A stretch of 64,000 nucleotides of DNA from an uncultured Actinomycetes bacterium (GTDB taxonomy: Bacteria; Actinomycetota; Acidimicrobiia; IMCC26256; PALSA-610). Below the pieces are notes generated by a model. That model was not told where the DNA came from. It did no database searches and worked only from the letters and a program-made list of their open reading frames with translations. Both the position numbers and the translations under genes were made by a program. Below are positions 6,569-39,468 of the stretch, piece after piece. Numbering within the stretch: position 1 is the stretch's first letter; each line of letters begins with the position of its first letter. Location of the stretch: positions 320,719 to 384,718 of the forward strand of contig CAWFFF010000005.1 in NCBI GenBank assembly GCA_963814995.1, written 5' to 3'.

Positions 6569-7768
6569 TCACACGACCACGACCTCGGCATCGACGCCGT
6601 CGGCGCTCAACATTCCGGCGATCTCGTCGCGGTACATCGGGTTCAGGACGAACACGATCTCCGGCGCCCACGACCCGAGCGACGACGGAGCCTCGATCTC
6701 GACCCCCGAGCCGGGCACGAACGAGCCGAGCTTGCGAGGATTGATGTCGACGACCGCATCGATACGACGGTCGAGCAGCGCCATGAAGGTCACGGCCTTG
6801 GCGCCCGCACCCCACAGGGCGGTCCGCCGGTCCCGAGACCCGGCCGCGTCGATACGGGCGCGCGCCGCGTCGAGCGTGCGGTCGAGCGTCGCCGCCGCAC
6901 GTCGCGCCTCGTCGACGAACGCGGCGATCTCGCCGGCAGCGACCGGGGCGCCGGCAGCGGCGGCCGCGCGCGCCTCGACCGAGAGGTACTGACCACCGAA
7001 ACGGTGATCGACCCGGTCGACGGCGTATCCGGCCCGACCGAGCAGCCCGACGAGTGCCGGCGCGGAGAAATACGACACGTGCGGGTAGATGAGGTCGAAG
7101 CTGGCGTCGCCGCCGAACACGGCTTCTCCGGCGGGCACCTCGAGGTACAGCGTCGCATCGTGGTCCGCGACCGCGGGGCGCAGGTGGCGAAGGAAGGTGA
7201 GCGGCTCGGGAATGTGCTCGAGTACGTGACGAGCGCAGTACAGGTCGCCGCGAACGGTCGCCGTCGTCGGGTCGAACAGTTCCGTGACGATCTCCACCGT
7301 CGCGGGCAGATCGAGGTCGCCCCGGAAGCTCGGGTCGAAGCCGTAGCCGCGGTTCTCCCCGCCCGCGCAGAGCGCCGCGAGAAAGCTGCCCTGCCCGCAG
7401 CCCACCTCGACGATGGTGCGGCCGTGGAGATCGTGGCGCTCGGTGAGGTCGTCGGCAAGCGCGCCGAGGTACTCGCGAAAGCTCGGAGAGAAGTCGAGCG
7501 CGTTCTCGTACGCGGCGTCGTAGGTGAGGATCGACGCGTCGAACGCCTGGTTGCACACGTCGCCGCACGTCGGGCACAGCACGAGCCGAAACGGTCCGGT
7601 CGCGGCGGCAACGGCCTCGGCCGCCGTGTGGTGCAGCTCGGAGCAGTTGACCGGCACGGCCGCGAACTCGAGCAGGATCTCGCCCGCGTCCGAGCCGCAG
7701 ACACGGCACGGGGCGATCGACGGCTCGGACCCGACCGGTCCGGGACGGGTCGACGACACCGGGCTCAA
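6569..7768 (-). CDS. SAM-dependent C-methyltransferase (NDP-hexose C-methyltransferase-like), paralog 1
   Basis: N-terminal 4-Cys zinc-ribbon (CRVCGS...CPTCGDV), SAM motif I VEVGCGQGSFL and a C-terminal Rossmann-like domain (LWGAGAKAVTF...VVDINPRKLGSFVPGSG). Confidence 0.8.
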   Translation of the reverse strand: MSPVSSTRPGPVGSEPSIAPCRVCGSDAGEILLEFAAVPVNCSELHHTAAEAVAAATGPFRLVLCPTCGDVCNQAFDASILTYDAAYENALDFSPSFREYLGALADDLTERHDLHGRTIVEVGCGQGSFLAALCAGGENRGYGFDPSFRGDLDLPATVEIVTELFDPTTATVRGDLYCARHVLEHIPEPLTFLRHLRPAVADHDATLYLEVPAGEAVFGGDASFDLIYPHVSYFSAPALVGLLGRAGYAVDRVDHRFGGQYLSVEARAAAAAGAPVAAGEIAAFVDEARRAAATLDRTLDAARARIDAAGSRDRRTALWGAGAKAVTFMALLDRRIDAVVDINPRKLGSFVPGSGVEIEAPSSLGSWAPEIVFVLNPMYRDEIAGMLSADGVDAEVVVV

Positions 7769-7781
7769 CGCGGTCTCCGGC

Positions 7782-8976
7782 TCATACTCCGACGAGATTC
7801 GCCTCGACGCCGATGCGGTCGAGCTCGGCCTGGATCTCGGCGAGGTAGATGGGATTCATCGCGACCACGAGATCGGGGTCGTACTCGGCCAAGAAGTCCG
7901 GGCCGACCACTTCCTGCCCGGTGCCGGCCATGAACATCCCCTGCTTGTAGGGATTGATGTCGACCGCGTAGCCGATCTCGTCCTGGAGGCCGAGCGTCGT
8001 GAGATACGACACGCCCTTCGAACCCGCGCCCCAGATCACCGCGCGCTTGCCGTCGGCCGCGGACGCGCGCAGGTCGCCCCGCAACTTCTCCACCACGATC
8101 GGGTACTGCTTCTCGAAATGGTCGACCGCGGCCTCGAGCCGGGCGATGTCGTCCTCGCCGGGCCGCGTCGGGTTGGTGCCCGTTCCGGGGACGGAGTCGA
8201 GCAGCAGGTACTGGTCGTCGAACTCGGTCGCGAGCGCGGTGATGTCGAAACCGTTACGCCGGAAGAGGCGCGCCATGGAGCCGAGACTGAAGTAGCTGCA
8301 GTGCTCGTAGTAGATGTCCCAGAACGCCACCTCCTCGAGGACGCGCGGCGACATCCGGGAGCTCGAACAGCACGACGGTGTCGGGGTTCCGGATCGTCCG
8401 TTTGATCATGCCGACGAACTCGTCGACGGGCGAGATGTGCTCGAGCGTGTGCCGGCAGACGATCGCGTCCGCGTGGAGGTCGGCGTACTTCTCGCCGTAG
8501 AAGTCGGCGATCCAGTTGATGCGGTCGCCCCGCGGGTCGTCCATGCGGTCAGCCCGGAAGCTGGGGTCGATGCCGATGCCGGAACCGGCGCCCGCCTTCA
8601 GCATCTCGAGGAGGAACTCGCCCTTGCCGCACCCGATCTCCAGCACCGACTTGCCCTGCAGGTGGTGCTGCGTGACCCACTGGGTGGCAAGCTCCTGCGC
8701 GAAGTCGCGGAACCTTGGCGAGAAGCCCTGCGTCTCCTCATAGCGCGCCGAGTACTCCGACTGCCCGATGTCGAACGCCGTGTTGAACACGAACCCGCAC
8801 GACCGGCAGAACGCGAGCACGAGGTCGCCGCGCGGGAAGGCCCGGGCGTCGTCGGCATCGTCCAGCAACAGGCAGCTGTTGACCGGGATGCTCAGCTTTT
8901 CGTGGAAGATCCGCAGATCCGCGCTCGTGCAGGCCGGACACTGCTGCAAATGCGTCGAGCTGGTTGTCGGCGTCAT
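7782..8976 (-). pseudogene. SAM-dependent C-methyltransferase, paralog 2, frame broken near 8344-8352
   Basis: The N-terminal part ([18 protein letters not shown]...CRSCGFV...LEIGCGKGEFL...VLFELPDV) is in the 8254..10062 frame. The C-terminal part (RVLEEVAFWDIYYEHCSYFS...IWGAGSKGVSY...AVDINPYKQGMFMAGTG) is in the 7782..8354 frame. ATGA start/stop overlap with the upstream gene at 8973-8976. Confidence 0.75.
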
Positions 8977-10217
8977 CGATTCGGTCCTGTCACGATCATG
9001 GGCTCCGGTACCGGCACGATGAACTGGCCGCCGAGCGCGGTGTACTTCTGCTGCTGGGCCATGATCTCGTCCTTGAAGTTCCACGCGAGCAGCAGCACGT
9101 AGTCGGGCCGTCGGTCGACCAGCGCGGACGGGTCGAGGATCGGCTGGTGCGTGCCCGGCATCAGCAGGCCCTGCTTGTGCACGTTGCGGTCGACGACGAA
9201 GTCGACGAGGTCGGTGCCGAGGCCGACGGTGTTGACGAGCGTCGAGCCCTTGGCCGCGGCGCCGTAGGCAGCGATCGTCTTGCCGTCGCGCTTGAGCCCT
9301 TCCAGCAGCGCGTGCAACGACGTGCGCACGTGCTCGACCCGCTTGGCGAAGCCCTCGTAGTACGCGAGCGACGTGAGCCCCGACGCTTCCTCGGACTCGA
9401 GGAAGGCGGTCGCGGCCGCACTGCGCTGCGTGCCCCGGCTCAAGTGCCAGCGCAACGTCCCGCCGTGCAGTCGCGGAAAGTTCTCCACGTGGTTCAGCGT
9501 GAGGCCGTGGCGCGCCGCGAGGCGGTCGATCGCCGTGCACGAGTGGTAACAGAGGTGCTCGTGGTAGATCGTGTCGAACTCGACGTGGTCGATGAGATCG
9601 CGCACGTAGGGGTTCTCGATGACGACCACACCGTCGTCGGCCAGGAGGGTCGCGACGCCGGCCAGCACGTCGTTGAGTCCGGGCACGTGCGCCATGACGT
9701 TGTTGGCGACGATCACGTCGGCGCGCTTGCCCTCGGCGACCAGCTCGGCCGCGAGCTCGGAACCGAAGAACCGGGCGAGCGTGGGCACACCGGCCGCGTT
9801 GGCGGCTGCGGCCTGGTCGGGTGCGGGGTCGACGCCGAGCACCGGCACGCCGAACTCGGCGAAGTTCTTCAGGAGGTAGCCGTCGTTGCTCGCGATCTCG
9901 ACGACGAGGCTCGACGGGCCGAGCTGGCGCTCGGCGATGAGCCGCAGCACGTTCTCCCGGCTGTGGCGCAGCAACTCGTCGGAGAACGACGAGAAGTAGA
10001 GGTAGTTGTCGACGAACATCTTGTCGGCCGGGACCTCTTCGAGCAGCTGCACGAGCGAGCACTCGGCACAGAACGCGACGTCGAGCGGAAACCGCTCCTC
10101 GAGCTTGAAATCGAAGCCGGGCTTCACCAGCGCGTCGGCCAGCGGCGTCTTGCCGAGCGACAGGAACGGGTGCAGGTCACCCGAACCGCACGACCGGCAT
10201 TGGGCGACGTCGCTCAT
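8973..10217 (-). CDS. SAM-dependent C-methyltransferase (TylC3-type NDP-hexose C-methyltransferase-like), paralog 3
   Basis: The ATG at 10217 is preceded by GGAAGGA. Motifs are CRSCGS...CAECSLVQL (zinc ribbon), [22 protein letters not shown] and [11 protein letters not shown]...[20 protein letters not shown] overlap with the upstream gene. Confidence 0.85.
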
Positions 10218-11272
10218 TTCGCGGTCCTTCCACCGGTACCGGCGCCGGTCTCGACGAAACGGAGGTCGGAGCCGATCCGCCCGGAGCCGAGCAGTTCGCG
10301 CACGTGCGCGATCCGCATGATCGACGCACTGGTGAGTGTCTTCTCGTCGAGACCGATGCGGATGTACTCGTCGTACAGCTGCTGCACACCGAGCGGTACG
10401 GTCCATTGCGGCTTGAACTCAGGGAACGATTCCGCGAGCAACTCGCAGTTCACGCGGTAGTTGCGGGCGTCGGGGCCGGCGTCGGCCGCGAACGTCACCT
10501 CGCAGTCGGGGACGATCGAGCCGACGATCTCGGCCACCTCCCGGACCCGGTAGTTCTCCGACGTCGACCCCACGTTGAACGCCTTGCCGTGCACGCGCTC
10601 GATGTCGGCGCCCAACATCACGACGAAGGCCTGCGCGATGTCGTCGATGTGCACGAGCGGACGCCACGGCATGCCGTCGCTCTTCATGCGCACTTCACCG
10701 ATCGCGACCGCGAACGCGGTCAGGTTGTTGACCACGAGGTCGCCGCGCAGGCGAACCGAGTAGCCGTACGCGGTGGCGTTGCGCAGGAACGTGGGACTGA
10801 AGCCGTCGCTCGCGAGCGCCGAGATGTCGCGCTCGGCGAGCACTTTCGCGCTGCCGTACGGCGTGACGGGAAGGAACTCCGCGGTCTCGTCGATGAAGTC
10901 GTCACCGTGCGCGCCGTAGAGACTGCACGTGGACGACTGCACGAAGCGCTTCACGCCGGCTTCCTTGGCCGCCGCCGCGGCCCGGACCGCGCCGAGGTGG
11001 TTGATGTCGAAGGTGGTGTTGGCGTCGAGGTCGCCGAGCGGATCGTTCGACAACGCCGCGAGGTGCAGGACCGCCTCGAAGCCGTCGAAGTCGGCCGCGG
11101 TGACGTCGCGCACGTCCTTGCGGATCCAGGGCACGTCGACGAGCGTCCCGCCGAAGTCGCAGCCCTCGAACAGGCCGCTGTCGAGGCCGGTGACCTCGTG
11201 GCCGGCGTCGAGCAGCATCGGGACGAGGGTCGCCCCGATGTAGCCGCGGTGACCGGTGACAAGTACGCGCAT
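10214..11272 (-). CDS. NAD-dependent epimerase/dehydratase (extended SDR), likely CDP-sugar modifying
   Basis: [16 protein letters not shown] (GxxGxxG), catalytic YGSAK (YxxxK). The ATG at 11272 lies 2 nt after the rfbF stop. Confidence 0.85.
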
Positions 11273-11274
11273 CG

Positions 11275-12045
11275 TCAGCTCCACACCTTCCAGGGCGCCT
11301 GGCCCGAATCCCACAGCGCCTGCAGGTGCTGCTTGTCGCGCAGGGTGTCCATGCACTGCCAGAACGACTCGTGCCGGTACGCCATCAGCTGCCCGTCCTT
11401 GGCGAGGCGCTCGAGCGGCTCGCGCTCCCACGGGGTCGCGTCGCCGTCGATGTAGTCGAAGATCGCCTGCTCGCACACGAAGAATGCGCCGTTGATCCAG
11501 CCCTCGCCCGTCTGCGGCTTCTCCGAGAATTCCACGATCGCGTCGCCGTCCATCTCCATGTGCCCGAACCGGGCCGGCGGCCGGACTGCCGTCATCGTGC
11601 AGAGCTTGCCGTGGTTGCGGTGGAACTCGATCAGCTTGTTGATGTCGATGTCGGAGACACCGTCGCCCCACGTCAGCATGAAGGTGCCGTCGCCGGAGTA
11701 CGGCTGCAGGCGCTTGATGCGCCCACCGGTCTGGGTGTCGGCGCCGGTCTCGATGAGCTCGACGTTCCAGTCGGGGCGCCGGCCGCCCCGGGCGGTGACG
11801 TTGCCGGCGCCGAGGTCGATCTCGAGGTTACCGATCAACGAGCAGCGGTCGGCGAAGTAGCGCTTGACCTCTTCGCCCTTGTACCCGAGCGCCACGACGA
11901 ATTCGTCGTGGCCGAACGACGCGTAGTGGCTCATGATGTGCCACAGGATCGGGAGTCCGCCGATCTCGACCATCGGCTTCGGCCGGATGACCGTCTCTTC
12001 GGCCAGGCGCGAACCGACGCCGCCCGCGAGGATCATGACCTTCAT
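11275..12045 (-). CDS. rfbF: Glucose-1-phosphate cytidylyltransferase
   Basis: [14 protein letters not shown]...[48 protein letters not shown]. This is highly characteristic of RfbF/DdhA. RBS GGGAGGGAGACGAG lies before the ATG. Confidence 0.93.
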
Positions 12046-12381
12046 CTCGTCTCCCTCCCGGCGCGCCGCGAGGGCGCCGCGCCGTCGACCCCCCGCGTCA
12101 GTACACGAGCATACTCGTCACTATCCGTGGTTGTCGAGCTGACCATTTGTGACAGATACCCGACTTGATCAGGAGAATTCACCGATTTGTAAAGCATTCG
12201 ACGACGGTACGTGACCACTTTCCGCTGCCTTCCGGAACCACGACGAGTCGTACGAGAGATCATCGGACGAAACGGCTCGTTCTCGACCACTCGGGCGCGA
12301 AATGCACGTCCCAGCATCGCGGACGTTCTGATCGGCCACCGGACGCCCGCGTGTCGAGCTCGCCGCCCGGACGGGTACCAA

Positions 12382-13524
12382 ATGACCGACTGGGGCATCA
12401 CCTACGGTGGGTCCTGCACGGATTGCTTCGGGGCCACCGGTGGAGGGCGCTTCTTGAGGAAGGTCAACTCGTCGGCGTGGCGCCGCGCGGGTGTGGCGCT
12501 GATCGCCGGAGCGGCAGTTTGCGCGCTCACGTTCGGGATCGAACGGTCCGGCAACGACGCGGGCGCCTCGTCCCCGGCCACCGACCGTCTCGGCTTCTAT
12601 CCCGGCTACGCGGGGCTGGCGAGCCTCAAAGGCCTCGAGGGCTGGCTCGGCCACCCCGCGCGCTACGTCGTCCAGTTCGGTGACATTCGCCAAGCGGCGT
12701 TCACGTCGAGCGTCTGGGGCGAGGTCACCAAGACCGGCACGCTGCAGACGATCTCCGGGCGCGTCTCGCTGGCCGAGTCGATCCCCCTCGCGTTCGGCGA
12801 GACCATCGACGCGAACACGGCGGGCGGCCGCGCGACCGCGCGGGCGAACCTGCAGGCGACGGCCAGCGGCGCGCACGACGCCGACTATCGCGTCGCCGCG
12901 TCGTACCTCCGCAACGGTGGCTACCCCGACGCGATCATCCGTCTCGGTTGGGAGTTCGACGGCGAGTGGTACCCGTGGGCAGCCCGCGGCAACGAGGCGC
13001 TGTGGGTCACGGCCTACCGGCACGTCGCCGACATCTTCCGGTCGGTGTCGCCCGGATTCCGGTTCGACTGGAACGGCACGGCGGGGTTCCTCCAGAACGC
13101 AACGGCCGCGTACCCCGGCGACTCGTACGTCGACATCGTCGGCCTCGACGTCTACGACAAGGGATTGGGCACGGCCTGGAACGCGACGACGAAAACGTGG
13201 GCCGACCCGGCCGCGGCGTTCGCGCACATCCAGGCCGACCTCCGCACGCAACGCGACTTCGCCGTCGCCCACGGCAAGCCCGTCAGCTATCCGGAATGGG
13301 CGCTGACCGGAGTCGACGCGAACGTGAAGTCACAGGTCGGAGGCGACGACCCGACGTTCATCCAGGGGATGAGCACATGGATGAACGGCCTCCCGGCGAG
13401 CGGGCCCGGAAGCTTGTCGTACCAGTCATATTTCAACGAGGACACCGAAGACGGGCATCACCGGATCAACGCGAACTACTTCCCGGCGAGCGAGCACCGG
13501 TACAAGACGCTGTTCGGGAGCTGA
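12382..13524 (+). CDS. Secreted glycoside hydrolase, GH26-like (clan GH-A), paralog 1
   Basis: Signal/TM segment AGVALIAGAAVCAL. Clan GH-A style catalytic motifs are IIRLGWEFDGEW (acid/base Glu) and VSYPEWAL (nucleophile Glu). It has a paralog at 37415..39468. The ORF-track start is 12211; the ATG at 12382 is a more plausible start. Confidence 0.75.
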   Translation: MTDWGITYGGSCTDCFGATGGGRFLRKVNSSAWRRAGVALIAGAAVCALTFGIERSGNDAGASSPATDRLGFYPGYAGLASLKGLEGWLGHPARYVVQFGDIRQAAFTSSVWGEVTKTGTLQTISGRVSLAESIPLAFGETIDANTAGGRATARANLQATASGAHDADYRVAASYLRNGGYPDAIIRLGWEFDGEWYPWAARGNEALWVTAYRHVADIFRSVSPGFRFDWNGTAGFLQNATAAYPGDSYVDIVGLDVYDKGLGTAWNATTKTWADPAAAFAHIQADLRTQRDFAVAHGKPVSYPEWALTGVDANVKSQVGGDDPTFIQGMSTWMNGLPASGPGSLSYQSYFNEDTEDGHHRINANYFPASEHRYKTLFGS

Positions 13525-13611
13525 TCCACCCCGGTCGCGCCGCCGGCGCAGGTCACGCCCACCCAGATCGCACTGACGTCGAGCGCGACCTCGTCGGCGT
13601 GGAAGCAGCCC

Positions 13612-14133
13612 GTGGTACTGATGGCGAAGCCGACCGCAACCGGCGTGCCCCCGACGTCACTCGCGGGCAATGTGCTCTTCTTCAACGGGCCGACCTTGCT
13701 GCATACGGTCGCGGTCGAGAACGGGGCCGCCTCGCTCACGACGACCACGCTCACGCCCGGAGCGCATTCGATCCGAGCCCTGTACGTGCCGACCAGAGAC
13801 GCCGCGCCGTCCACGTCGGCGGCGGTGGTCCAGCGGGTCTACCGCGCGCCGACGACAATCACGATGCCGGCGATCGCGGGCACGGCCGGCAATTGGGCCT
13901 CGCTGACGGCAACCGTCACCGCGCCGGACGTCGGAGCACAATCTGGCGTGGTTGTGTTCACGAGCAACGCGAGGCACACCAGTACCCGGGTCACGCTGAA
14001 GGCCGGAGCCGCACGATTCCCGGTATTCGCGCTCGGCGTCGGGGTCCATTCGTTCACGGGCCGGTTCGAGGGCTCGCAGAACTACGCTGGCGCGACCGTG
14101 AACTCGACGGTGACGGTTCTCCCCCGGACGTAG
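13612..14133 (+). CDS. Bacterial Ig-like (Big_3-type) domain repeats; probably the detached C-terminus of the GH26 gene
   Basis: Two Ig-like repeats (...GNVLFFNGPTLLHTVAVENGAASLTTTTLTPGAHSIRALYVP... and ...GVVVFTSNARHTSTRVTLKAGAARFPVFALGVGVHSFTGRFEGS...). It is in the same frame as the GH26 ORF, separated only by the TGA at 13522-13524. The first Ig repeat starts upstream of any start codon (VTPTQIALTSSATSSAWKQPV). Confidence 0.6.
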   Translation: MVLMAKPTATGVPPTSLAGNVLFFNGPTLLHTVAVENGAASLTTTTLTPGAHSIRALYVPTRDAAPSTSAAVVQRVYRAPTTITMPAIAGTAGNWASLTATVTAPDVGAQSGVVVFTSNARHTSTRVTLKAGAARFPVFALGVGVHSFTGRFEGSQNYAGATVNSTVTVLPRT

Positions 14134-14185
14134 CGCCGCCTGCGCCCGTCAAGTGGCCCGCTGGGCTGCCGATCCTCAGTGAGTT

Positions 14186-15380
14186 GTGCGTACTCGAGCC
14201 ATTCTGGTCAGCATCCTGCGTGCCTGCGTCAACGACGACGACAACGCCGTCCGAAAACTGGCGCGCGACGGCCCCGCTCGACGGTCTTGCCGATCTGGCG
14301 TTCGAGCACGGAGTCGCGGGGTCGGTCCACAAGTACGCCGACCTTCTCGGCGGGCTCGATGCCTCCGAACGGCAGTCGCTCGCGGCGGCCGCACTCGGCA
14401 ATCGCATGAACCACGCCCGTATCGGGCGCGACCTGCAGTACCTGGCCGGCGTACTCGCTCCCCTCGCCGTGCCGTGGCTCGTCGTGAAGGGTCCCGCGGC
14501 CGCGGCGACGCTCTATACGCCACCAGAACAACGCACGGCGGGCGACATCGACGCGCTGATCGCGCCGGAACACTTCGCCGCGGCCGTCGAGGCACTCGAG
14601 CGCGCCGGCCATCCCGTGAACGATGCCAACTGGCCGCTCGTGCGCAGCATGACCGCGGGCCAGCTGCACATGGTGCTGCCGCTCGGGACGGTGCTCGACC
14701 TGCACTGGCACCTCCTCTACGAGGCGATCGAACGGCGCCGCTACCCGCTGACGACCGGTGAGCTCATGCCGCGGCGCCGGACCGTGACGATCGCGGACAC
14801 GCAGATCTGCACGCTCGACCGCGCGGACACGGTGATCCACCTCGCGTTCCACGCGGCCAACGAAGGCGCCGACCGGCTGTGCTGGCTGTCCGACATCACG
14901 CGCGCCGCGGCCGCGGTCGAGCCGGCCGAGTGGGACGACGTCGTGTCGCGGGCGACCGCGTGGAGGATGCAGCTTCCGGTGGGAACGGTGTTGCAGCGCG
15001 CGGCACAACAGCTCGGCGCGGCCGTCCCCGCGTCGGTCCCGCGCCGGCTCGCGCCCGCGCCGTGGCGGATGATGATGTCGGGCGCCGACCGGTTGTTCCC
15101 CGTGGCCGCGACGCCCCGGCGGGTCGGGAGTCCGGCGTCGCTGCTGGCGCGCAGCTCCGCGCAGGCCAACACGCCGCGGCGTGCGACCACGACCGCGATC
15201 TCGGGGGTCGCGCGGCGCGCGCTCCACCTCGCGCAGACCGGCGACACCGGTCGCGTCGACCTGACCAATTGCCCGGACTCGCCCGCGAGCTTGCTGTACC
15301 GGGCCGGGGAGCCCGCCGCCGACCGCGATGCGTACTTCGCCGCGATCAGGGACGAAGTCGCGGGCACGACCGCGCACTGA
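14186..15380 (+). pseudogene. Uncharacterised nucleotidyltransferase family protein (PF14907-like), frame shift at the C4 run 14272-14275
   Basis: The body is in the frame of ORF 12948..15380 (LDGLADLAFEHGVAGSV...VVKGPAAAATLY..RTAGDIDALI...LDLHWHL...HLAFHAANEG). The plausible N-terminus VRTRAILVSILRACVNDDDNAVRKLARDG is in the +1 frame, and removing one C joins them as ...RDGPLDGLADL. Alternative in-frame starts are TTG 14184 and GTG 14220. Confidence 0.65.
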
Positions 15381-15389
15381 CGCGACGCG

Positions 15390-15842
15390 CTAGCCCCGCG
15401 CCCTCACTCGGCGCAGCAGGTTCCGCGCGCGCGCCACGACAGGCGGCGAGGGAAGCGGCGCATCCCCACCACGCACGCGCGCGGTGAGCACGGCGCGTGT
15501 CTCCATCGGGCGGTACCCGCCGCCGGGAGGCTCGATGCCGACGACACGCCCGATGAGCAACGCGTCGTCGACGAGCGGGTCGGCGGACACGTTGCCGTCG
15601 CCCCAGAAGCGATTCCGGTCACCGCGCCGGCCGACGAACCGGTGCACCGCGACCGTTTGCGGCGACTCGCAGAACGCCCAGATCTCACCCCATCGCGGCC
15701 GCTCGGAAGCAGATACCCAGACCGCCGATCCTGATACGATCGTCTGGCCCATGGACGAACCGGCGACCTCGATCCGCAGTGGTTCGGATGCGGCACGCAG
15801 CCGGAGCAGCCGTGCGAACGACTCGGAGCTCGTGCTCGACAT
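15390..15842 (-). CDS. S26-family (SipW/archaeal-type) signal-peptidase-like serine peptidase
   Basis: Nucleophile motif AGSSMGQTIVSGSAVWV, then GEIWAF, VHRFVG and WGDGNVSADPLV (the HR...GD.N..D pattern of S26B/S24-like peptidases). Intact ORF. Confidence 0.65.
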   Translation of the reverse strand: MSSTSSESFARLLRLRAASEPLRIEVAGSSMGQTIVSGSAVWVSASERPRWGEIWAFCESPQTVAVHRFVGRRGDRNRFWGDGNVSADPLVDDALLIGRVVGIEPPGGGYRPMETRAVLTARVRGGDAPLPSPPVVARARNLLRRVRARG

Positions 15843-16814
15843 CGCCGGCCTACCTCTCCTGATGCGGGCGGCCGACGCGGCCCATCTCGCCGCCGTGCGC
15901 GCCTCGTTCGGGACCGTGGCCGCATGTGACTCCGCGCCCGAGGCCGAGCTCGACTACGGACCCGGGTCACCTGACGATGCCGGCCCGCGAGCCCGATGCC
16001 CGACAGCCCGACCTCGAGGTGTGGAACGAGGGCGACGTGTTGTTCGCGTCGTCCGACGTGCACGGTGTGCGGGCGCGGGTGACACCGGCTTCGATCGACA
16101 TCGTGTCGACCGGCGCCCCGCACGAGCGATCCCTGCGGCGCATCTTCCAACCGGTGATCACGCACGTGCTCGCGCACCGCGGGGTCTTCGTGATTCACGC
16201 GGCCTCGATGCGCAGGGGCGAGCGCGGGCTGCTCGCGCTCGGCGAGACGGGCAAGGGCAAGTCGACGATCGCGCTTGCCGCGTTCCAGGACGACTGGCGC
16301 GTCATGGGGGATGACCTCGTTGCACTCTGGATCGTCGACGACACCCCGATGATACGCGGGCTGCCGAAGCCGATGGCGCTCCCCAGCGACGTCGCCGCCG
16401 ACGCAATCCCCCGCGCTCCGCGACGCCGAGACTCTCGCATGGGACCACCGACGCCGGCTGCATGTTCCCGTCGAACAACTCGAGCTGCGGGCGGTTCCGC
16501 TCGGCGCGATCGTCGTCGCCGACCACGGCGACGCGCAGCGCTCGACCTCGGAGCCGCTGGCATCGGACCGCACGACATCGTGGCTCATGTCGTCGTACAC
16601 GTCGATCGGCGACGCGCCCCTCATGCGGGAGTTCTTCCCGGTTGCGATCCGCGCCGCGTGCGTCCCCAGCCGCATGCTCTTCCACGGGACCGATCCCGCC
16701 ACCCGTATCGCCGACGCACAGCGGATCCTCGCGGAGGTCGCGACCGAGCTGGTGAACGGTTGCGCCCAGGCACCTGTCAGGGCGCGGGCGACACCGTCAC
16801 GGTGCCGAAGTTGA
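15832..16814 (+). pseudogene. HPr kinase/phosphorylase-like (HprK-related) P-loop kinase, read across three frames
   Basis: Frame 1 reads VLDIAGLPLLMRAADAAHLAAVRASFGTV...ELDYGPG. Frame 2 reads DLEVWNEGDVLF...VFVIHAASMRRGERGLLALGETGKGKSTIALAAF..WRVMGDDLVAL...GLPKPMALP, which includes the P-loop. Frame 3 reads LRDAETLAWDHRRRLHVPVEQLE...SWLMSSYTSIGDAPLMREFF... The shifts lie at about 15960-16005 and at the C5 run 16408-16412. An ATG at 15977 would avoid the first shift but lose the N-terminal domain. Confidence 0.65.
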
Positions 16815-19800
16815 CGTCGGCGCGGTGCGCCGCGAGCACGATCGAACCGCGACTGAGGTCGCCGTTGGCCTGCAGCAGCCACGACGACGGCTCCGTCGTT
16901 CCCGTCCGCCAGACCTTGAACTTGTAGAGACTGCCGCCGATCGCGTTGTCGGTCACGCTGAACTTGAACGTGTACGCGACACCGAGTGTCAGCTTCAGCC
17001 CGCTCGTGTCCTTGATCAGCGTCATCTCCTGATGCGCGTCGGTGTTCTGGTAGATCTCGGCCTTCTGCGTCGCGCCCTGGTCGTTGTCGTACAAGAAGGC
17101 GGCCGGGAAGGGGTGACCGATGCGCGGTTGGTCGGGCATCTGGACTCCGTGGAGATCGGAGGTCGCGCCCTTGAAGCCCGCGATGAGCCCGACCGCGGCG
17201 CCGTCAGGGTCCATGGAGTTGATCGTGACCTGCGCAGTCCCCTGGTACTGCGTCCACGAGCTCGCCTGCCCGATGGTGACGAGACGGTCGTAGCCGATGT
17301 CGCTGTTGCGGATCGTGCCGTCGGCCTGAATCGTCCAGTGCCCGTCAGCGACCTGGGCGATGCTGTTGATGTTGCCACCCGCCGTCGCCCAGTTGGCGGT
17401 GTAGGGCAACGCCCACGGGCCACCGCTGACCTTGTTCACGGTCACGTCGGAAGTCGTCTGGTTGCCGAAGGTGTCGATCGCCTTGAGATGCACCGTGTTG
17501 GCGCCGGATTGGAGCGATGCGTAGTCGAGCTCTACGTTGAATTCGCCGGGCGCGACGAGGCGGACCTGGTTCTCGCCCAACGACAGCGAGTTCGTGGTGC
17601 CGCCGTTCAGCGTGTACGTGAGACTGGCGATGCCGCTCGGGTCGGACACATCGCCGAGCACGTTCACCCACTGCTGCGGTTGCCCGAGGGCGCCGAAGGT
17701 CTCGTTGGACCCGTACCAGAGGTTGACGACGGGCGCGATCGGCGCGGTCGGCCAGGCGACGCCGTCGTCGGTCGCGGGCGGAGCGGTCGAGTTGACGAAG
17801 TAGTCGACCTTCGCCGAGAACGCGGGCGACGAGCCGCCGCCGAAGTTGCCGGCGAACACACCGGCACGCGCGACCGTCAGCGTCTGGGTCAACGCGGCCG
17901 CCGCGGTCCAGCGCATCCCGTCGTACGAGTACCCGAAGGTCCAGCTATTACCGGTACGAGCGACCCGCAGGATGACCGAAGGCTTGTTGTAGATCTCGAA
18001 GTTCGCGACGGTCGTCACTGCTCGCGCCCGACACCGTCTTCACGACGAAGGCGGTCTGGAAGAAGTTCTGCACCAGGCGCGACGTAGAGGTAGTGCGTCG
18101 AGTCCTGCTCGACGACGACACCTTGCTCCTGGAATTGCTGCGACACCGACGAGTCGAACTTGGCGTCGAGGCTCAGGTTGCTGTTCTGGATCGTCTGCAC
18201 GATCCGCGGCGCGCGCGTTGCCGCTCGAAGCCGGATCGTGCGACGAACCCGCGGGGACGTTGATCACCGCATGCTGCCCGTCCATCGACTGCGATCCACC
18301 GCTCGGGTTGACGAAGCTCCACGTGTTGGCGTTCAGCGACCCGGCGCTGAAGTCGTCGTTCGTCAGCGTTGTGGTGGTACCCGAACCACCGTCTTCGGGG
18401 ACGATCGGGCTCGCAGTGTTGAAGAAATAATCGACAGTCGCGGTCCACGCCGGCGGCGGCGAACCCGCGTTCCCCGCATACGGCCCCACCTTCGCGACCG
18501 TCATCGCGAACGAGAACGACCCACCCGTCAACCACGTCACACCATCAAGCGAATACGTGAACAACCACGTCGAACCCGTCCGCTTCACCCGCAACCAGAA
18601 CGGCGCAGGCGCCGACGCCAACGTCGTCGCAACCTTCACCGACGCAGTCGCACCCGACACCGACGCCGCGAACAAGATGACCTGACCGCCACCCGCATTG
18701 AACACATCGAACCGCAACGCAGTCGACGCGTCCTGCTCCACCAGGATCCCCTCATCCTGATACTGCGCCGAACCCATCGACTCGAACTTCGACTCCACCT
18801 CGAAATCCGCATTCGCCGACCGGCTGCACCACCCGCAACGCATGCAACCCCGACGACCAAGAGTCGTGCTCCACCCCACCCGGCACCGACAACACCAACG
18901 CATGACCATTCACCGACACCGAACCGTCGCCGACCGGGTTCTCCACCGACCACAACGACGAATTCAACGACCCCGCATGAAAATCATCCGACACCGGCGA
19001 ACCACCCGACACGCACACGCCGACGTCGTGAACGTCGCATCACCACTCGACGCCGAGTTCGACGACGCATCCGCCGACGTCACCTTGTAGTGATACGTCG
19101 TCGCACACGTCAGCCCCGACACCACCAACGAATGCAACGTCACCAACGACGCCGACGACACATTCGCCCCATAGGCCGCCGTCGACCCCGAATCGACCCG
19201 CGACGACGACACCTCGTCGGTCGCCCACCCAACCGTCGCCGACGTCTGCGACGGCGTCGCCGTCACCCCCGAGATCACCGGCGGCGTCGTGTCCGTCACC
19301 GATCCGTCTTCGGGGACGATCGGGCTCGCAGTGTTGAAGAAATAATCGACAGTCGCGGTCCACGCCGGCGGCGGCGAACCCGCGTTCCCCGCATACGGCC
19401 CCACCTTCGCGACCGTCATCGCGAACGAGAACGACCCACCCGTCAACCACGTCACACCATCAAGCGAATACGTGAACAACCACGTCGAACCCGTCCGCTT
19501 CACCCGCAACCAGAACGGCGCAGGCGCCGACGCCAACGTCGTCGCAACCTTCACCGACGCAGTCGCACCCGACACCGACGCCGCGAACAAGATGACCTGA
19601 CCGCCACCCGCGTTGAACACATCGAACCGCAACGCAGTCGACGCGTCCTGCTCCACCAGGATCCCCTCATCCTGATACTGCGCCGAACCCATCGACTCGA
19701 ACTTCGACTCCACCTCGAAATCCGAATTCGCGACCGGCTGCACCACCCGCAACGCATGCAAACCCGACGCCCAAGAGTCGTGCTCCACCCCACCCGGCAC

Positions 19801-21832
19801 CGACAACACCAACGCATGACCATTCACCGACACCGAACCGTCACCGACCGGGTTCTCCACCGACCACAACGACGAATTCAACGACCCCGCATGAAAATCA
19901 TCCGACACCGGCGAACCACCCGCAGACACACGCCGACGTCGTGAACGTCGCATCACCACTCGACGCCGAGTTCGACGACGCATCCGCCGACGTCACCTTG
20001 TAGTGATACGTCGTCGCACACGTCAGCCCCGACACCACCAACGAATGCAACGTCACCAACGACGCCGACGACACATTCGCCCCATAGGCCGCCGTCGACC
20101 CCGAATCGACCCGCGACGACGACACCTCGTCGGTCGCCCACCCAACCGTCGCCGACGTCTGCGACGGCGTCGCCGTCACCCCCGAGATCACCGGCGGCGT
20201 CGTGTCCGTCACCGATCCGTCTTCGGGGACGATCGGGCTCGCAGTGTTGAAGAAATAATCGACAGTCGCGGTCCACGCCGGCGGCGGCGAACCCGCGTTC
20301 CCCGCATACGGCCCCACCTTCGCGACCGTCATCGCGAACGAGAACGACCCACCCGTCAACCACGTCACACCATCAAGCGAATACGTGAACAACCACGTCG
20401 AACCCGTCCGCTTCACCCGCAACCAGAACGGCGCAGGCGCCGACGCCAACGTCGTCGCAACCTTCACCGACGCAGTCGCACCCGACACCGACGCCGCGAA
20501 CAAGATGACCTGACCGCCACCCGCGTTGAACACATCGAACCGCAACGCAGTCGACGCGTCCTGCTCCACCAGGATCCCCTCATCCTGATACTGCGCCGAA
20601 CCCATCGACTCGAACTTCGACTCCACCTCGAAATCCGAATTCGCGACCGGCTGCACCACCCGCAACGCATGCAAACCCGACGCCCAAGAGTCGTGCTCCA
20701 CCCCACCCGGCACCGACAACACCAACGCATGACCATTCACCGACACCGAACCGTCACCGACCGGGTTCTCCACCGACCACAACGACGAATTCAACGACCC
20801 CGCATGAAAATCATCCGACACCGGCGAACCACCCGCAGCACACGCCGACGTCGTGAACGTCGCATCACCACTCGACGCCGAGTTCGACGACGCATCCGCC
20901 GACGTCACCTTGTAGTGATACGTCGTCGCACACGTCAGCCCCGACACCACCAACGAATGCAACGTCACCAACGACGCCGACGACACATTCGCCCCATAGG
21001 CCGCCGTCGACCCCGAATCAACCCGCGACGACGACACCTCGTCGGTCGCCCACCCAACCGTCGCCGACGTCTGCGACGGCGTCGCCGTCACCCCCGAGAT
21101 CACCGGCGGCGTCGTGTCCGTCACCGATCCGTCTTCGGGGACGATCGGGCTCGCAGTGTTGAAGAAATAATCGACAGTCGCGGTCCACGCCGGCGGCGGC
21201 GAACCCGCGTTCCCCGCATACGGCCCCACCTTCGCGACCGTCATCGCGAACGAGAACGACCCACCCGTCAACCACGTCACACCATCAAGCGAATACGTGA
21301 ACAACCACGTCGAACCCGTCCGCTTCACCCGCAACCAGAACGGCGCAGGCGCCGACGCCAACGTCGTCGCAACCTTCACCGACGCAGTCGCACCCGACAC
21401 CGACGCCGCGAACAAGATGACCTGACCGCCACCCGCGTTGAACACATCGAACCGCAACGCAGTCGACGCGTCCTGCTCCACCAGGATCCCCTCATCCTGA
21501 TACTGCGCCGAACCCATCGACTCGAACTTCGACTCCACCTCGAAATCCGAATTCGCGACCGGCTGCACCACCCGCAACGCATGCAAACCCGACGCCCAAG
21601 AGTCGTGCTCCACCCCACCCGGCACCGACAACACCAACGCATGACCATTCACCGACACCGAACCGTCACCGACCGGGTTCTCCACCGACCACAACGACGA
21701 ATTCAACGACCCCGCATGAAAATCATCCGACACCGGCGAACCACCCGCAGCCGCGGCGGTGTGCATCGGGAGTGCGGCGACGAGGGCAACGGCAACGACG
21801 ACAGCCAGGGCCCGAATACGTCGAATTCTCAC
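16777..21832 (-). pseudogene. Giant secreted LamG/ConA-like + FN3 repeat protein, about 1680 aa if repaired; frame broken at six or more points
   Basis: The GTG at 21832 is preceded by GGGAGGG. Signal peptide VRIRRIRALAVVVAVALVAALPMHTAAA. Three (LamG-like 205 aa + FN3 99 aa) units follow, then a fourth LamG, a fifth diverged LamG, Ig-like domains and a C-terminal ConA-like region (16777..18018). Frame changes occur at about 19926, 19008-19014, 18817, 18205-18215, 18083 and 18020. Confidence 0.75.
18389..21749. repeat. Near-identical tandem repeat, 3.7 copies, periods 912, 913 and 914 bp
   Basis: The marker string CATGAAAATCATCCGACACCGGCGAACCACCCG starts at 21715, 20803, 19890 and 18976. The copies are almost identical by eye except at the unit junctions and around 18810-18860. 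Confidence 0.9.
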
Positions 21833-27121: not shown

Positions 27122-27970
27122 TCAGTACGACCCGAGCGTTCCGGTGACGCGCGCGACACGCAACGCCTTCTTCAAAGCGATGAGTGACAACGGGAGCAGC
27201 ACGACCGCGAACGCGACGAGAATCGCGTAGTCGGTCCCGACCTGGGTGATCGACTGACCGTTGATGAGCCCTTCGCGCAGGACCTGCAGCGCGTAGAACG
27301 GCGGGAGTACGTGCGCGACACCCTGCAGGACGCCGGGCAGCACCGCGATGGGGAACAGCGCACCGGCGAGAAAGTTCGTCGTCTGCGTGACGACCGGCGT
27401 GAACGGATCGCCGCGCTTGCTGAGCACGATGAACGCGGCCGAGACGGCGCCGATCGCCGCGAACAGCGCGAGCGTGGGTGGCAACGCGAGCAGCGCGGTG
27501 AGGATTCCCTGCGCCTGGAACTGCGCGCCCAGGGCGACGATCGCGAAGAAGAAGACGAAGAGGATCTCGACCAGCGCGAATCCCAGTGGAACGACGAGCG
27601 AGCCGATGAACAGCGTCGGCAGCGCGGTGGGTGTTGCCAGCAGGACCTCGAGCGTCCCGCTCGTCTGCTCCGCCCGAATCGTCTCGGTGAACGCGCCGAG
27701 GCCGACGCTCGAGATCGCCCCGAGCAGCAGACCGATGACGACGAACTCGAAGTACCGACCTCCGTATTGCGACAGGTGGCTGGGATCCACGATCTTGCTG
27801 ATGAAGTAGTACGCCGCGACGCTCGCGACGATGGAGAACGCGCGCGAGATCAGCGCGAACTGATACGAGATCTCGACCCAGAAATCCCTCGTGGCGATCG
27901 CGCGGATCTGCGCGAACGGTGTCGATCCCAAGACGCTCGGAATCTGGTCGGCCGGGCTCGGCGCGGTCAC
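27122..27970 (-). CDS. ABC-2 type transporter permease
   Basis: Six predicted TM helices. The GTG at 27970 overlaps the ATPase stop (GTGA). ABC-2 style sequence, e.g. EQTSGTLEVLLATP. Confidence 0.8.
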   Translation of the reverse strand: MTAPSPADQIPSVLGSTPFAQIRAIATRDFWVEISYQFALISRAFSIVASVAAYYFISKIVDPSHLSQYGGRYFEFVVIGLLLGAISSVGLGAFTETIRAEQTSGTLEVLLATPTALPTLFIGSLVVPLGFALVEILFVFFFAIVALGAQFQAQGILTALLALPPTLALFAAIGAVSAAFIVLSKRGDPFTPVVTQTTNFLAGALFPIAVLPGVLQGVAHVLPPFYALQVLREGLINGQSITQVGTDYAILVAFAVVLLPLSLIALKKALRVARVTGTLGSY

Positions 27971-28738
27971 GACTCGCTCACCTCGCGCTCGAGGATCTCG
28001 AGGAGCTCCCGCGCCGCGACGTGGTAGTCGCCGTCTCCTATGCGCCCGACGTGACGCACGCTCCCGTCGATGAGCATGACCACGCGGTCGCACCACGTCG
28101 CGACCTCGTCCAGCCGATGGCTCGACAACAACACCGATCGGCCGGCGTCGGCCTGTTCGCGCAGCAACCTGCCGACGGTGACGCTCGCGATGGGGTCGAG
28201 GCTTCGGGTCGGCTCGTCGAGCACGATGAGTGCGGGCTCGGGCATCACGGCCCGCGCCACGTTCGAGCGCGGCGCGCATACCCGACGAGTAACCCATGAC
28301 CCGTCGATCGCGGTCGGCGAGCCCCAGCCGTTCCAGGAGCTCCGTGGCGCGGCGGCGAGCCTCCGGGAGCGGCAACCCGTCCAGCACGCCGAAGAACTCC
28401 AGGTTCTGGCGGCCGTCGAGACGCCAGTACGTCGCGCGGTCGCCGCTCAGCACGAGGCCGAGCTTCTTGCGCGCCTCACGCGGCGACGCGAAGACGTCGA
28501 TCCCGTCGATCGACACCGAGCCCGACGACGGCTCCAACAACGTGCTGATGATCTTGAGCAGGGTCGTCTTCCCGGCGCCGTTCGGGCCGACCAACCCGAC
28601 GATCTCTCCCGACTGCACGTCGAAGGTCACGTCGTGCAGCGCGTCGACGGTCTTCGTGGACGCGACCCGAACGAAGGGCCGCAGGTACCACGGCGCGCGC
28701 ATGTACTGCTTGCCGACTCCCTCGATCTGCAAGCTCAC
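27967..28738 (-). pseudogene. ABC transporter ATP-binding protein, frame broken near 28262-28266
   Basis: Walker A GPNGAGKTTLLK, Q-loop region and signature YSSGMRAAL are in the 27122..28738 frame. The continuation NVARAVMPEPALIVLDEPTRSLD (Walker B) and SSHRLDE (H-loop) are in the 27967..28260 frame. One extra base separates them. Confidence 0.8.
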
Positions 28739-28753
28739 GGCTGCAGCCGATCG

Positions 28754-29026
28754 TCAGTCGGTGGGTGACACGAAACCGAGGTGGACGAGTTCATCGAGGA
28801 AGGTTTCGACGTCCGTGGTCGCTTGCGTGAGGCTCACTTCGGGAAACGCCTCGTGCACGACCTCGGCCAGGCGGGAAACCGACGTCGGCGCCGAGGCCAG
28901 GGTCCGCCAGATCAACGAACCGACGGGGTTCAGAGTGACCAGCTCGCTCGACGCCTGGTCGATGAGCATCACCTTGACGTCGACCTGCTCCCACAAGACA
29001 CCGCTCGCGACATCGAAGTTCGGCAC
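28754..29026 (-). CDS. PqqD-family protein (RiPP recognition element-type peptide chaperone fold)
   Basis: 90 aa. Pattern ...VMLIDQASSELVTLNPVGSLIWRTL....SVSRLAEVVHEAF.EVSLTQATTDVETFLDELVHLGFV is typical of PqqD/RRE domains. The GTG start is preceded by GAGGAAGAG. Confidence 0.75.
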   Translation of the reverse strand: MPNFDVASGVLWEQVDVKVMLIDQASSELVTLNPVGSLIWRTLASAPTSVSRLAEVVHEAFPEVSLTQATTDVETFLDELVHLGFVSPTD

Positions 29027-29092
29027 GTCTCTTCCTCGTTCCGAGCGCTGCTCTTACGAGCCGGTGTTCCGAGCCGAGTGTTCCGAGCGAGC

Positions 29093-29120
29093 GTTGCCCG
29101 CGGCCCGTACCGCGGACAAC
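29093..29120 (-). terminator. Strong stem-loop 29 nt downstream of the small ORF (attenuator or processing-type hairpin)
   Basis: The minus strand reads GTTGTCCGCGG-TACGGG-CCGCGGGCAAC: an 11-bp stem (one G-U pair) and a 6-nt loop. No U-tract. Confidence 0.45.
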
Positions 29121-29148
29121 GACCCCGCCCGATTCTCTTGCTTCCCCG

Positions 29149-37414: not shown

Positions 37415-39468
37415 CTAGCCGGAGACGACCGCGCCCGATACCCACAGGTCGTCGAGGTTCACGTACTGGTTGGACCCGGCGGGCTTGTCGAACCAGACCT
37501 TCAACGTGTGCCGCCCCGGCGTCAGGCGGGCTCCCATCGTCAGCTTCGACCACGAGTTCCAGTCGAGGGTCGCCGGGAAGGTCTTGTTCGCCACCCACAC
37601 CTTGCCGTCCAGCTCGAGTTTCCGGTGCGCATTGCCGTTGCCGGCGCTGTAGCGCAGTGCCATTGTCGTCCATCCACCGATCGCGTTGAACGAGAACGTC
37701 ACGTACTGGCCCTGCGAACCCCAGCAGCAGACGTACGGCGCGTTCTCGGCACCGGACCACCGCGACTCCGTCGGGATGTTCCTCGGCGACGAGCCCGCCG
37801 GGATCACGAGGATCGGCGAGACCGTGAGGGTGTCGAGGTTCAGGTAGTTGTGCGAACCGGAGTTCCGGTCGAGCCAGATCTTGAGCGTGTGGCGACCCGG
37901 GCTCAGGCTCCTGCTCAGCGAGATCGACCTCCAGGAATTCCAGTTCTTGGTCGCCCAGAAGTTGGCCCCGCCGACCCACACCGAACCGTCGAGGTCGACC
38001 CTGCGCTGCGCCAATCCGTTCCCGGCGCTGTACCGGAGCGCAAGATTCGTCGGACCGCCGGACGCGTCGAACGAGAAGGTCACGTACTGGCCCTGCGACG
38101 CCCAGCAACAGACGTACGGATCGGTCTGCGCTCCCGACCAACGTGACTCGGTCCCGATGTTCCTCGCCGCGGACGACGCGGGGATCACCTGACGCGTCCG
38201 CGGGCGTCTTGACGGGCGCCGTCGTCGGCACCGTGGTCACCACCGGCGGACGGGTCGTCGTCGTCGCCTTCGGCGCGGTCGTCGTCGTCGCCTTCGGCGC
38301 GGTCGTCGTCGTCGCCTTCGGCGCGGTCGTCGTCGTCGCCTTCGGCGCGGTCGTCGTCGTCGCCTTGGGTGCGGTGGTGGTCGCCACGCCGCCGACGGTC
38401 GCAGGCGGTGACGACGGACCGAAGAGCGAGCGGAAACGTGCGGCGGCGTTCGGGAAGTGCGACAGCATGTGGTAGCCGTCGTTCGACGTGTCCTCGTTGA
38501 AGTACGACTGGTACGCGAGGCTGCCGGCGCCGCTGCTCGGAAGACCGCTCATCCAGTCGAACATGCCCTGGATGAATGCGGGGTCGTCGTTGCCCGCGCT
38601 GTTCGGCGACTCGGCGCCGCCACTCGCGAGCGCCCACTCCGGGAAGCTGACCTGCTTGCCGTGCGCGATGGCGAAGTCCCGCTGGAAGGTGAGGCTCGGT
38701 ATGTCCGTCGCGAAAGCGGCCGCGGGGTCGACCCACGTACGCGTCGACGAATTCCACGGGCTCGCCAGACTCTTGTCGTAGAGGTCCATCCCGATGATGT
38801 CGACGTAGTTGTCGCCCGGGTACGCGCTGGTCTGACCCTGCATCCAACCGGGGTCGCCGTTCCAGTCGAAGCGGAAGCTCGACGACACGGAGCGGAAGAT
38901 GTCGGCCGCGCGGCGGTACGCGTTGACCCACAGCGCTTCGTTGCCGCGCGACGACCACGGCATCCAGCCGCCGTCGAACTCCCAACCGAGGCGGATGATC
39001 GCGTCGGCGTTGCCACTGTCGCGGAGGTACGTCGCCGCGACGCGGAAGCCGGTGTCGTTCGCGCCGTTCACTGTCGCCTGCAACTGCGCACGCGCGGTCG
39101 CCTGTCCCGAAGCTGAGTTCGCGTCGACGAAGTTGCCGAACGCGAGCGGCACTGACTCGACGAACGTCGTGCTGTTCGCGAGCGTCTGCATCGAGCCCGC
39201 CTTGACGACCTCACCCCACACGCTCGACATGAACGCGGAAGGCGACGAGATGTCACCGAACTGCACGAGGTACTTCGCGTCGCGTCCCAACCACGTCTCC
39301 AGCGAGTTGAACTGCGAGAGGTTTCCGTAGCCGGGGTAGAAGCCCAACTGCGTCACGGCCGGTCGGTCGGTCGCCGACGCTCGGTTCATCATTCCTGCGC
39401 CGACGAGACCGGTCGCGCTCAACGCCGCGAGCAGCACCGCGATGCGCGTGCGCATGCTGTTCATCATG
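37415..39468 (-). pseudogene. Secreted GH26-like hydrolase + TTTTAPKA linker + two CBM6/35-like domains; frame broken near 38185-38200
   Basis: Signal peptide MMNSMRTRIAVLLAALSATGLVGAG. GH motifs IIRLGWEFDGGW and VSFPEWAL. The linker is followed, in another frame (ORF 37415..38188), by two similar modules of about 125 aa (WSGA..PYVCCW.SQGQYVTFSF...ALRYSAGNG...NSW...PGRHTLK.W...YLNLD). The GH26 frame has no stop before 37263. Confidence 0.7.
38254..38373. repeat. 24-bp tandem repeat x5 (GTCGTCGTCGTCGCCTTCGGCGCG) encoding the TTTTAPKA linker
   Basis: Four perfect units and one variant, read directly from the sequence. Confidence 0.9.

Follow-up and report, generated by a model that had tools for sequence, protein, structure and literature searches.

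Linear polyphosphorylated peptides (LPPs) are ribosomal peptides whose maturation clusters are embedded in capsule loci of Bacillota, the phylum to which LPPs are stated to be restricted (Popov et al., Nat Commun 2026; PMC13381572). The core set of Paenibacillus alginolyticus consists of lppA, K, B, S, D, and N. The precursor LppA carries the leader YxxPxVLxHQxIxFETxxS, and LppB is a RiPP (ribosomally made and post-translationally modified peptide) recognition element (RRE). Ser3 of the core is polyphosphorylated by LppK, and the leader is cleaved after T(-1) by LppS, a SipW-type peptidase (S29/H68/D93) that depends on the RRE and whose N-terminal (alpha1) helix contacts the RRE-leader sheet. 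LppD is MsbA-like, and LppN, a nucleoside triphosphate (NTP) transferase, was silent in the heterologous host (PMC13381572). Here we describe a comparable gene set in a 64-kb stretch of contig CAWFFF010000005.1 from an uncultured actinomycete (the window). Three adjacent genes in it encode a nucleotidyltransferase (N), a serine peptidase (S), and a P-loop kinase (K), and a second group encodes a precursor peptide (A), a PqqD-like RRE (B), and an ATP-binding cassette (ABC) exporter (D1/D2). The trio is quite likely one half of an LPP-type maturation cluster that is split by approximately 10 kb of cell-wall polysaccharide genes. The enzyme logic of LPPs would then extend to uncultured soil Actinomycetota, whereas the literature has held these peptides to be restricted to Bacillota.

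Comparison with described peptide systems

Like the Bacillota clusters, the window combines a precursor with an HprK-like kinase, a discrete RRE, a soluble SipW-type peptidase, a PF14907-type NTP transferase, and an ABC exporter, all within a surface-polysaccharide locus. The catalytic positions of the peptidases, compared by published residue positions, are nearly identical (S29/30, H67, and D93 in the window; S29/H68/D93 in LppS). Both systems have a Tyr-type YxxPxV leader and a Ser three residues past the Thr at the likely cleavage site, and neither shows a cyclase: in the window, no Asn_synthase or transglutaminase match was obtained among the open reading frames (ORFs) scanned, which covered all but a few stretches. 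The differences are also clear. The window cluster belongs to Actinomycetota, its exporter is of the two-gene ABC-2 (DrrAB-like) type instead of MsbA-like, and its leader is without the rest of the consensus (LxHQxIxFET). Glycan genes spanning 4-10 kb interrupt the cluster in most relatives, and in the window K, S, and N lie on alternating strands with overlapping S and K starts. The Paenibacillus core has 45 residues, whereas the window core is short (~10 aa, with GSYCPP); such a short and strictly conserved core should be far easier to track by mass spectrometry.

Phosphorylated and phosphoglycosylated lasso peptides (paeninodin PadeK; pseudomycoidin PsmK/PsmN) are made with related enzymes. 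In these systems a Ser of the precursor is the target of an HprK-like kinase, the phosphate receives a hexose from a nucleotidyltransferase, and the gene set includes a PqqD-type RRE and an ABC exporter (PMC8498205). It is conceivable that the cluster in the window serves to tailor and export a true lasso peptide whose cyclase and B2 cysteine protease are encoded at another site of the genome. Among PqqD models, those of lasso peptides give the RRE its highest score, cleavage before Gly28 would make the leader-core junction look like the lasso T(-2)/G1 pattern, and one S-family protein (P0122) is fused to an Asn-synthase-like domain. Neither a lasso cyclase nor a B2 protease was matched among the scanned ORFs of the window, however, and no such genes occur among the Pfam labels listed for the related loci L001, L002, L006, and L007. 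The leader peptidase in the window would be a serine peptidase, and the core, GSYCPPTHR, has no Asp or Glu with which a macrolactam could be closed. We therefore regard a lasso peptide as very improbable.

Two further comparisons concern single components. The HPr-rel-A system of NCBIfam (kinase A, TIGR04352; chaperone, TIGR04353) and the SynChlorMet pair ScmC/ScmD likewise join an HprK-related P-loop protein to a PqqD-family chaperone. In hidden Markov model (HMM) searches, K has its best neighbors in these families, which also appear among the PqqD-family matches to B. The scores in the window all stay far under the curated limits (34-37 bits for K, cut-off 200; 17 bits for B against TIGR04353, cut-off 35), and there are no radical-SAM enzymes. 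The S26B type I signal peptidases (SipW, Sec11/SEC11A) share with S the fold and the order of the Ser...His(Arg)...Asp motifs. In contrast to them, S has only 150 aa and no membrane anchor, and it would act in the cytoplasm on an RRE-bound leader.

Gene order, enzymes, and precursor

The trio genes were delimited by third-position GC and homology (Table 1). The order and orientation of K, S, and N are identical in all nine related loci that hold the trio. In L007/L011, an Acidimicrobiia metagenome-assembled genome (MAG; GCA_035996165.1), and in a second MAG, L014, the genes for A, PqqD, the ABC ATPase, the ABC-2 permease, K, S, and N follow one another with no gene in between. Exporter and kinase are separated by an insert of approximately 4 kb in L009 and of approximately 10 kb in the window, L001/L006, L012, and L013. 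The ~10-kb insert encodes an FkbM methyltransferase, GT4 enzymes, a flippase, and a DUF1349-repeat protein. Because the genes are contiguous in L007/L011 and L014, the 12-kb displacement of the PqqD gene from the trio is best explained by an insertion into a once compact cluster. The initial annotation had noted this displacement and had linked the trio to PqqD and to the 36-aa peptide; both statements hold, and fusions of the S domain add support to the second. In different proteins this domain is joined to an HprK-like domain (P0107), to PF14907 (P0121 and P0112), or to the Asn-synthase-like domain of P0122. These proteins could be true fusions, or they could result from frame or stop errors in metagenomic source contigs.

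Table 1. Positions of the cluster genes and of the hairpin in the window
Feature	Position	Strand	Basis
Precursor peptide gene (A), 36 aa	29149..29259	-	homologues upstream of PqqD in relatives; conserved ribosome-binding site
GC-rich stem-loop between A and PqqD gene	29085..29130	-	folding energy; same place in L006, L007
PqqD-family RiPP recognition element (B), 90 aa, intact	28754..29026	-	Pfam PqqD E 3e-13
ABC exporter ATPase (D1), DrrA-like, two frames	27973..28738	-	+1 G at ~28264
ABC-2 type permease (D2), intact	27122..27970	-	81% identical to L006/L007 permeases, single frame
PF14907 nucleotidyltransferase (N)	14186..15380	+	body 14280-15380; PF14907 E 3.7e-37
Soluble SipW/Sec11-type (S24/S26-fold) serine peptidase (S), 150 aa, predicted	15390..15842	-	fold and motifs
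HprK/PEPCK-fold P-loop kinase (K), predicted, three frames	15832..16814	+	Walker A 16241-16267

The trio as first described, with a PF14907-type N, an S26-like S, and an HprK-like K, agrees with the profile matches, coordinates, and motifs. For K, a profile search that tested for an unrelated P-loop family returned no such family; the matches were to the HprK-related families TIGR04352, TIGR04355, ScmC, and hpr-ser, and in addition there was one weak match to phosphoenolpyruvate (PEP) carboxykinase. An AlphaFold model of the intact K homologue of L001 (mean predicted local distance difference test, pLDDT, 86) matches PEP carboxykinases over both domains (E 2e-9); the fold of these enzymes is also that of HprK/P. 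Together with the Walker A motif GETGKGKST, family matches and fold class K as a predicted HprK-like kinase, although its function in the window is uncertain, the gene being read in three frames. Intact homologues (L001, L003, and L007) have 326-348 aa. In the model, residues 1-18 of the database gene calls (MDEPATS...) are disordered, and they are the antisense of the GSSMG codons of the peptidase, so GTG 15832 is the likely start of K and overlaps the start of S by 11 nt. The divergent 5' overlap annotated at 15832-15842 thus agrees with conserved GTG and ATG starts. The two genes diverge from these overlapping starts at a CCATGG palindrome (15750-15842 region). Database gene calls extend K upstream as MDEPATSIRSGS..., antisense to the catalytic GSSMG region of S, and the same calls truncate S to 119 aa, without the nucleophile.

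The peptidase S has an N-terminal helix followed by GSSMG (Ser29/30), VHR (His67), and WGDGN, with Asp82, Asp88, and Asp93 as acidic residues. The three motifs are invariant in the family, as are Ser29/30, His67, Asp88, and Asp93. In the AlphaFold model (pLDDT 77) the helix spans residues 6-19, and a disordered segment (121-133) corresponds to an out-of-frame tail. Foldseek gave human SEC11A as the best match (7p2p_A, E 2.4e-4), followed by LexA, lambda cI, and signal peptidase I. No Pfam or NCBIfam match was obtained for S at normal thresholds, a profile of the S family matched no sequence of the PDB, and the exact sequence from the window was not on record when looked up. A search with the family profile yielded 283 representative proteins, and ten distant members were all unnamed metagenomic proteins by cluster name. 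Model and motifs support S as a Ser/His/Asp peptidase that resembles SipW and Sec11 but lacks a membrane anchor. The role of leader peptidase that was first proposed for it gains support by analogy, as this role has been demonstrated experimentally in the analogous LPP clusters (PMC13381572).

The match of N to PF14907 reaches 128.7 bits (cut-off 31.2) over profile positions 6-247. Among NCBIfam models, B, whose gene adjoins those of the precursor and the exporter, matches lasso_PqqD_Strm best, though at 32.8 bits it does not reach the cut-off of 70. From its sequence, the exporter is predicted to be DrrAB-like, with a separate DrrA-like ATPase and an ABC-2 permease.

The precursor A, MTDHTSKYTSPAVERREDVAGLLTRTQGSYCPPTHR, has 36 aa; its gene starts with GTG, and the ribosome-binding site (RBS) GGGAGGA lies 8 nt upstream. 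Its leader contains the YxxPxV motif as YTSPAV, and its core is the conserved GSYCPP. In each of L006, L007/L011, and L014 a homologue lies upstream of PqqD, and the protein database contains a further three (P0035-P0037). All seven distinct precursors (window, L006, L007, L014, and P0035-P0037) share the leader motif, and six of them have the GSYCPP core, which is replaced by SYDGP in L014. The consensus reads Y-x-x-P-A-[VI]-ERREDV-x-G-[LV]-L, then a variable linker of 4-5 residues, and GSYCPP. Compared with L006, the gene in the window shows 10 synonymous and 7 non-synonymous codon changes, the latter mostly in or beside the linker, and the RBS is kept. The segment T26-Q-G-S29 retains the T(-1)/S(+3) spacing of LPPs, and the middle of the LPP consensus is replaced by ERREDVxGLL.

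Between A and the PqqD gene a stem-loop with a free energy of -34.4 kcal/mol (z -4.1) is predicted. The same hairpin is found at the same place in L006 (7950-7985) and L007 (5530-5560), with the conserved sequence GUUGYCCG..CGGGCAAC, and both arms of the stem show changes when the three loci are compared. The hairpin may act between the two cistrons as a terminator, or as a stabilizer that sets the ratio of precursor to enzymes.

By analogy with the Paenibacillus system, a complete pathway can be proposed. The PqqD-like RRE would bind the 36-aa precursor through the YxxPxV leader motif, and the HprK-like kinase would phosphorylate the serine of the GSYCPP core, possibly repeatedly. The soluble Ser/His/Asp peptidase would then remove the leader at the leader-core junction (around ..LLTRT/QG..), which the RRE would present to it. 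The PF14907 nucleotidyltransferase would add a further group, probably a sugar or a nucleotide, to the phosphate, and the ABC-2 exporter would move the product out of the cell.

More distant relatives with a PqqD gene and an S-type peptidase gene occur in L015 (8426-13520) and L016 (2959-5668). Two or three small ORFs there fit the pattern MKYTTPAVTRTxLAGAL..CxWDGSxYxC, and their ribosome-binding sites are strong. K and N were not detected by tblastn in L015 or L016. In L015, the gene of a LytR_cpsA_psr (LCP) ligase adjoins the PqqD/S pair.

Alternative readings and frame breaks

Several findings weigh against an LPP-type cluster. N, S, and K are apparently transcribed as three units of their own, an unusual arrangement for a RiPP operon. 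The leader of A agrees with the LPP consensus in its YxxPxV part only, the exporter is not of the MsbA type of the LPP export pump, and L009 has the enzymes but no precursor detectable in the 20 kb examined. K stays far below the cut-off of the HprK-family profiles. S reaches 14.9 bits with Pfam S24 (PF00717; threshold 23.3, E 0.02) and 11.9 bits with Pfam S26 (PF10502; threshold 22.9, E 0.23); as both scores fall below the gathering threshold, its kinship to S24/S26 rests on fold and motifs. A different view of the trio is that K, S, and N act on polysaccharide or lipid-linked intermediates and that PqqD and the small ORF have nothing to do with them. The embedding of the trio in a 45-kb glycan locus, the co-direction of N with a GH26 glycosidase gene, the separate transcription units, and the occurrence of PF14907 beside phosphonate genes as well would all fit this view. 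It does not account for the compact loci in which the trio is contiguous with precursor, RRE, and exporter, for the pairing of a leader-type YxxPxV motif with a lasso-type RRE, or for the fusions of S with K-like and N-type domains, and experiments have shown that a peptide is processed by the analogous set (PMC13381572). An action on glycan intermediates without a peptide is consequently improbable. An LPP-type peptide could still serve the glycan genes. We give a small chance to the idea that the GSYCPP phosphopeptide is part of envelope glycan assembly, for example as a peptide primer or anchor with which the PF14907 enzyme and glycosyltransferases build or attach a polymer. If true, this would explain the glycan genes inside the cluster, the Wzm/Wzt-like ABC-2 type of the exporter, and the minimal PqqD-peptidase pair beside the LCP ligase gene. 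The tight interleaving with cell-wall polysaccharide genes has now been seen in two phyla, and the suspected link of these peptides to surface-glycan biology is the stronger for it.

Several genes of the cluster are interrupted in the window. K is broken, as initially annotated, but at three places instead of one, as the comparison with three intact homologues reveals. A four-way DNA alignment placed +1 insertions at 15964 (G), at ~16398, and at 16747 (A). The second lies in a variable stretch (16388-16412) that contains a C5 run, and the third shifts the native TGA stop (16753-16755) out of frame, so that the ORF runs on to 16814. The peptidase gene, which had been called intact, has an open ORF, yet it carries a +1 near 15481 and a +2 near 15423, which together restore the frame but leave ~19 codons of the C-terminal tail scrambled; read in the alternative frame, 15423-15481 gives ACVVGMRRFPRRLSWRAR, the family consensus. 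For N, the annotated break at the C4 run (14272-14275) was recovered. It separates the conserved N-terminal helix VRTRAILVSILRAC, which is one base out of frame, from the body, so that the first 29 codons (14186-14272) are in another frame, and the whole PF14907 domain lies in one frame downstream of the run. Start options in the main frame are TTG 14184 and GTG 14220. The break, which fits one extra C in the sequence, is shared by L001, where it likewise lies beside a C4 run, and N is uninterrupted in L003, L007, L009, L010, and L012. The exporter ATPase gene is also frameshifted (+1 G at 28264) and reads on into the permease as a false ORF of 538 aa.

Outside the cluster, the middle one of three C-methyltransferase genes is split by a +1 C at 8348, and a giant surface-protein gene is cut into four ORFs by several indels. 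A thiolase gene (52002-53169, +) is broken near 52650, so that the Thiolase_N domain and the Thiolase_C domain fall into ORFs of different frames. This gene shows that the frame breaks of the assembly are not confined to the peptide cluster, and it refutes an impression from a third-position GC scan that there were no breaks beyond 29 kb. The three apparent in-frame stops of the giant gene were dropped as evidence of decay by nonsense substitution. The stretches that contain them fail to match the homologue; because these stretches are out of frame, the stops reflect further indels and not nonsense mutations.

The breaks are probably consensus insertion errors of a long-read metagenome assembly. 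Every break that could be localized against homologues (K, S, ATPase, and methyltransferase) is an insertion of 1-2 bases. The nearest relatives are "MFD" MAGs with contigs named "contig_N" and similar local clusters of breaks, and we take these MAGs to stem from a Nanopore long-read soil survey. One relative, L002/L013, is shattered throughout. A variable island assembled from mixed strains would give such local break clusters. The competing explanation is that the cluster is truly decaying, with K, the exporter ATPase, and perhaps N as pseudogenes and the pathway dead. K/S/N has 6 breaks in 2.6 kb, versus ~1 per 3-4 kb elsewhere, and breaks are also concentrated in the giant surface-protein gene beside it; this strong enrichment fits real decay too and counts against a working cluster. 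The flanking sugar-nucleotide genes are 92-97% identical to those of L001 and mostly intact (one methyltransferase is split), compared with 72-77% for the trio. The same gene set is preferred by breaks in L014 (K, S, and N), whose flanks are largely clean, and in L012 (exporter), and very frequent gain and loss of LPP clusters has been reported (PMC13381572). On the other side, the localized breaks include no deletions, and no nonsense substitutions occur within the cluster genes. Mutations in bacteria do not usually follow such an insertion-only pattern. In all frames the genes have kept their lengths and their identity to homologues, and the thiolase, an unrelated gene, is split too. A special mark of decay in these particular genes, as the breaks could at first be read, is thus not supported, and we consider a dead pathway unlikely, though a good deal less so than a lasso peptide or an action on glycan intermediates. 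A look-up of sequencing runs for 14000-17000 listed no runs, and no reads or RNA data were found for the region; for 9000-12000, it listed weak holders (share 0.05-0.08), which represent relatives in soil metagenomes. If the frame breaks are consensus errors, the organism probably has a working cluster. As a practical caution, frame breaks in this genome should not be taken as pseudogenes without reads.

Setting within the polysaccharide locus

The G+C content of the window is ~69%, and approximately 3-47 kb of it is a large surface-polysaccharide locus. This locus encodes a priming sugar transferase, C-methyltransferases, sugar-nucleotide enzymes, GT2 and GT4 glycosyltransferases, a flippase, Wzy-/Wzz-like proteins, GH26 enzymes, and a repeat-rich surface protein. 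A promoter and terminator consensus scan of 14-17 kb gave no match, as expected for a high-GC genome.

Next to N, at 12211-14133 (+), the ORF of the GH26 glycosidase stops at TGA 13522-13524, and the same frame continues into two Big_3_5 Ig-like domains. This stretch is either two genes or a single gene with a premature stop or an error. The window has a GH26 paralogue, with CBM6 following it, at 37415-39467 (-). On the other side of the trio, the giant surface-protein gene (16780-21766, -), the product of which has 1360 aa in the relative L001, consists of ~913-bp tandem repeats with DUF1349/GH43_C2 (concanavalin-like) and PurAcPhosph_N-like modules; the region is strongly skewed (GC skew -0.25, AT skew +0.27). 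The three paralogous C-methyltransferase genes (Methyltransf_23 and Methyltransf_14) stand in tandem at 6569-10217 (-). At the edge of the polysaccharide locus (47661-50540, +), a protein of 959 aa with seven fibronectin type III domains is encoded.

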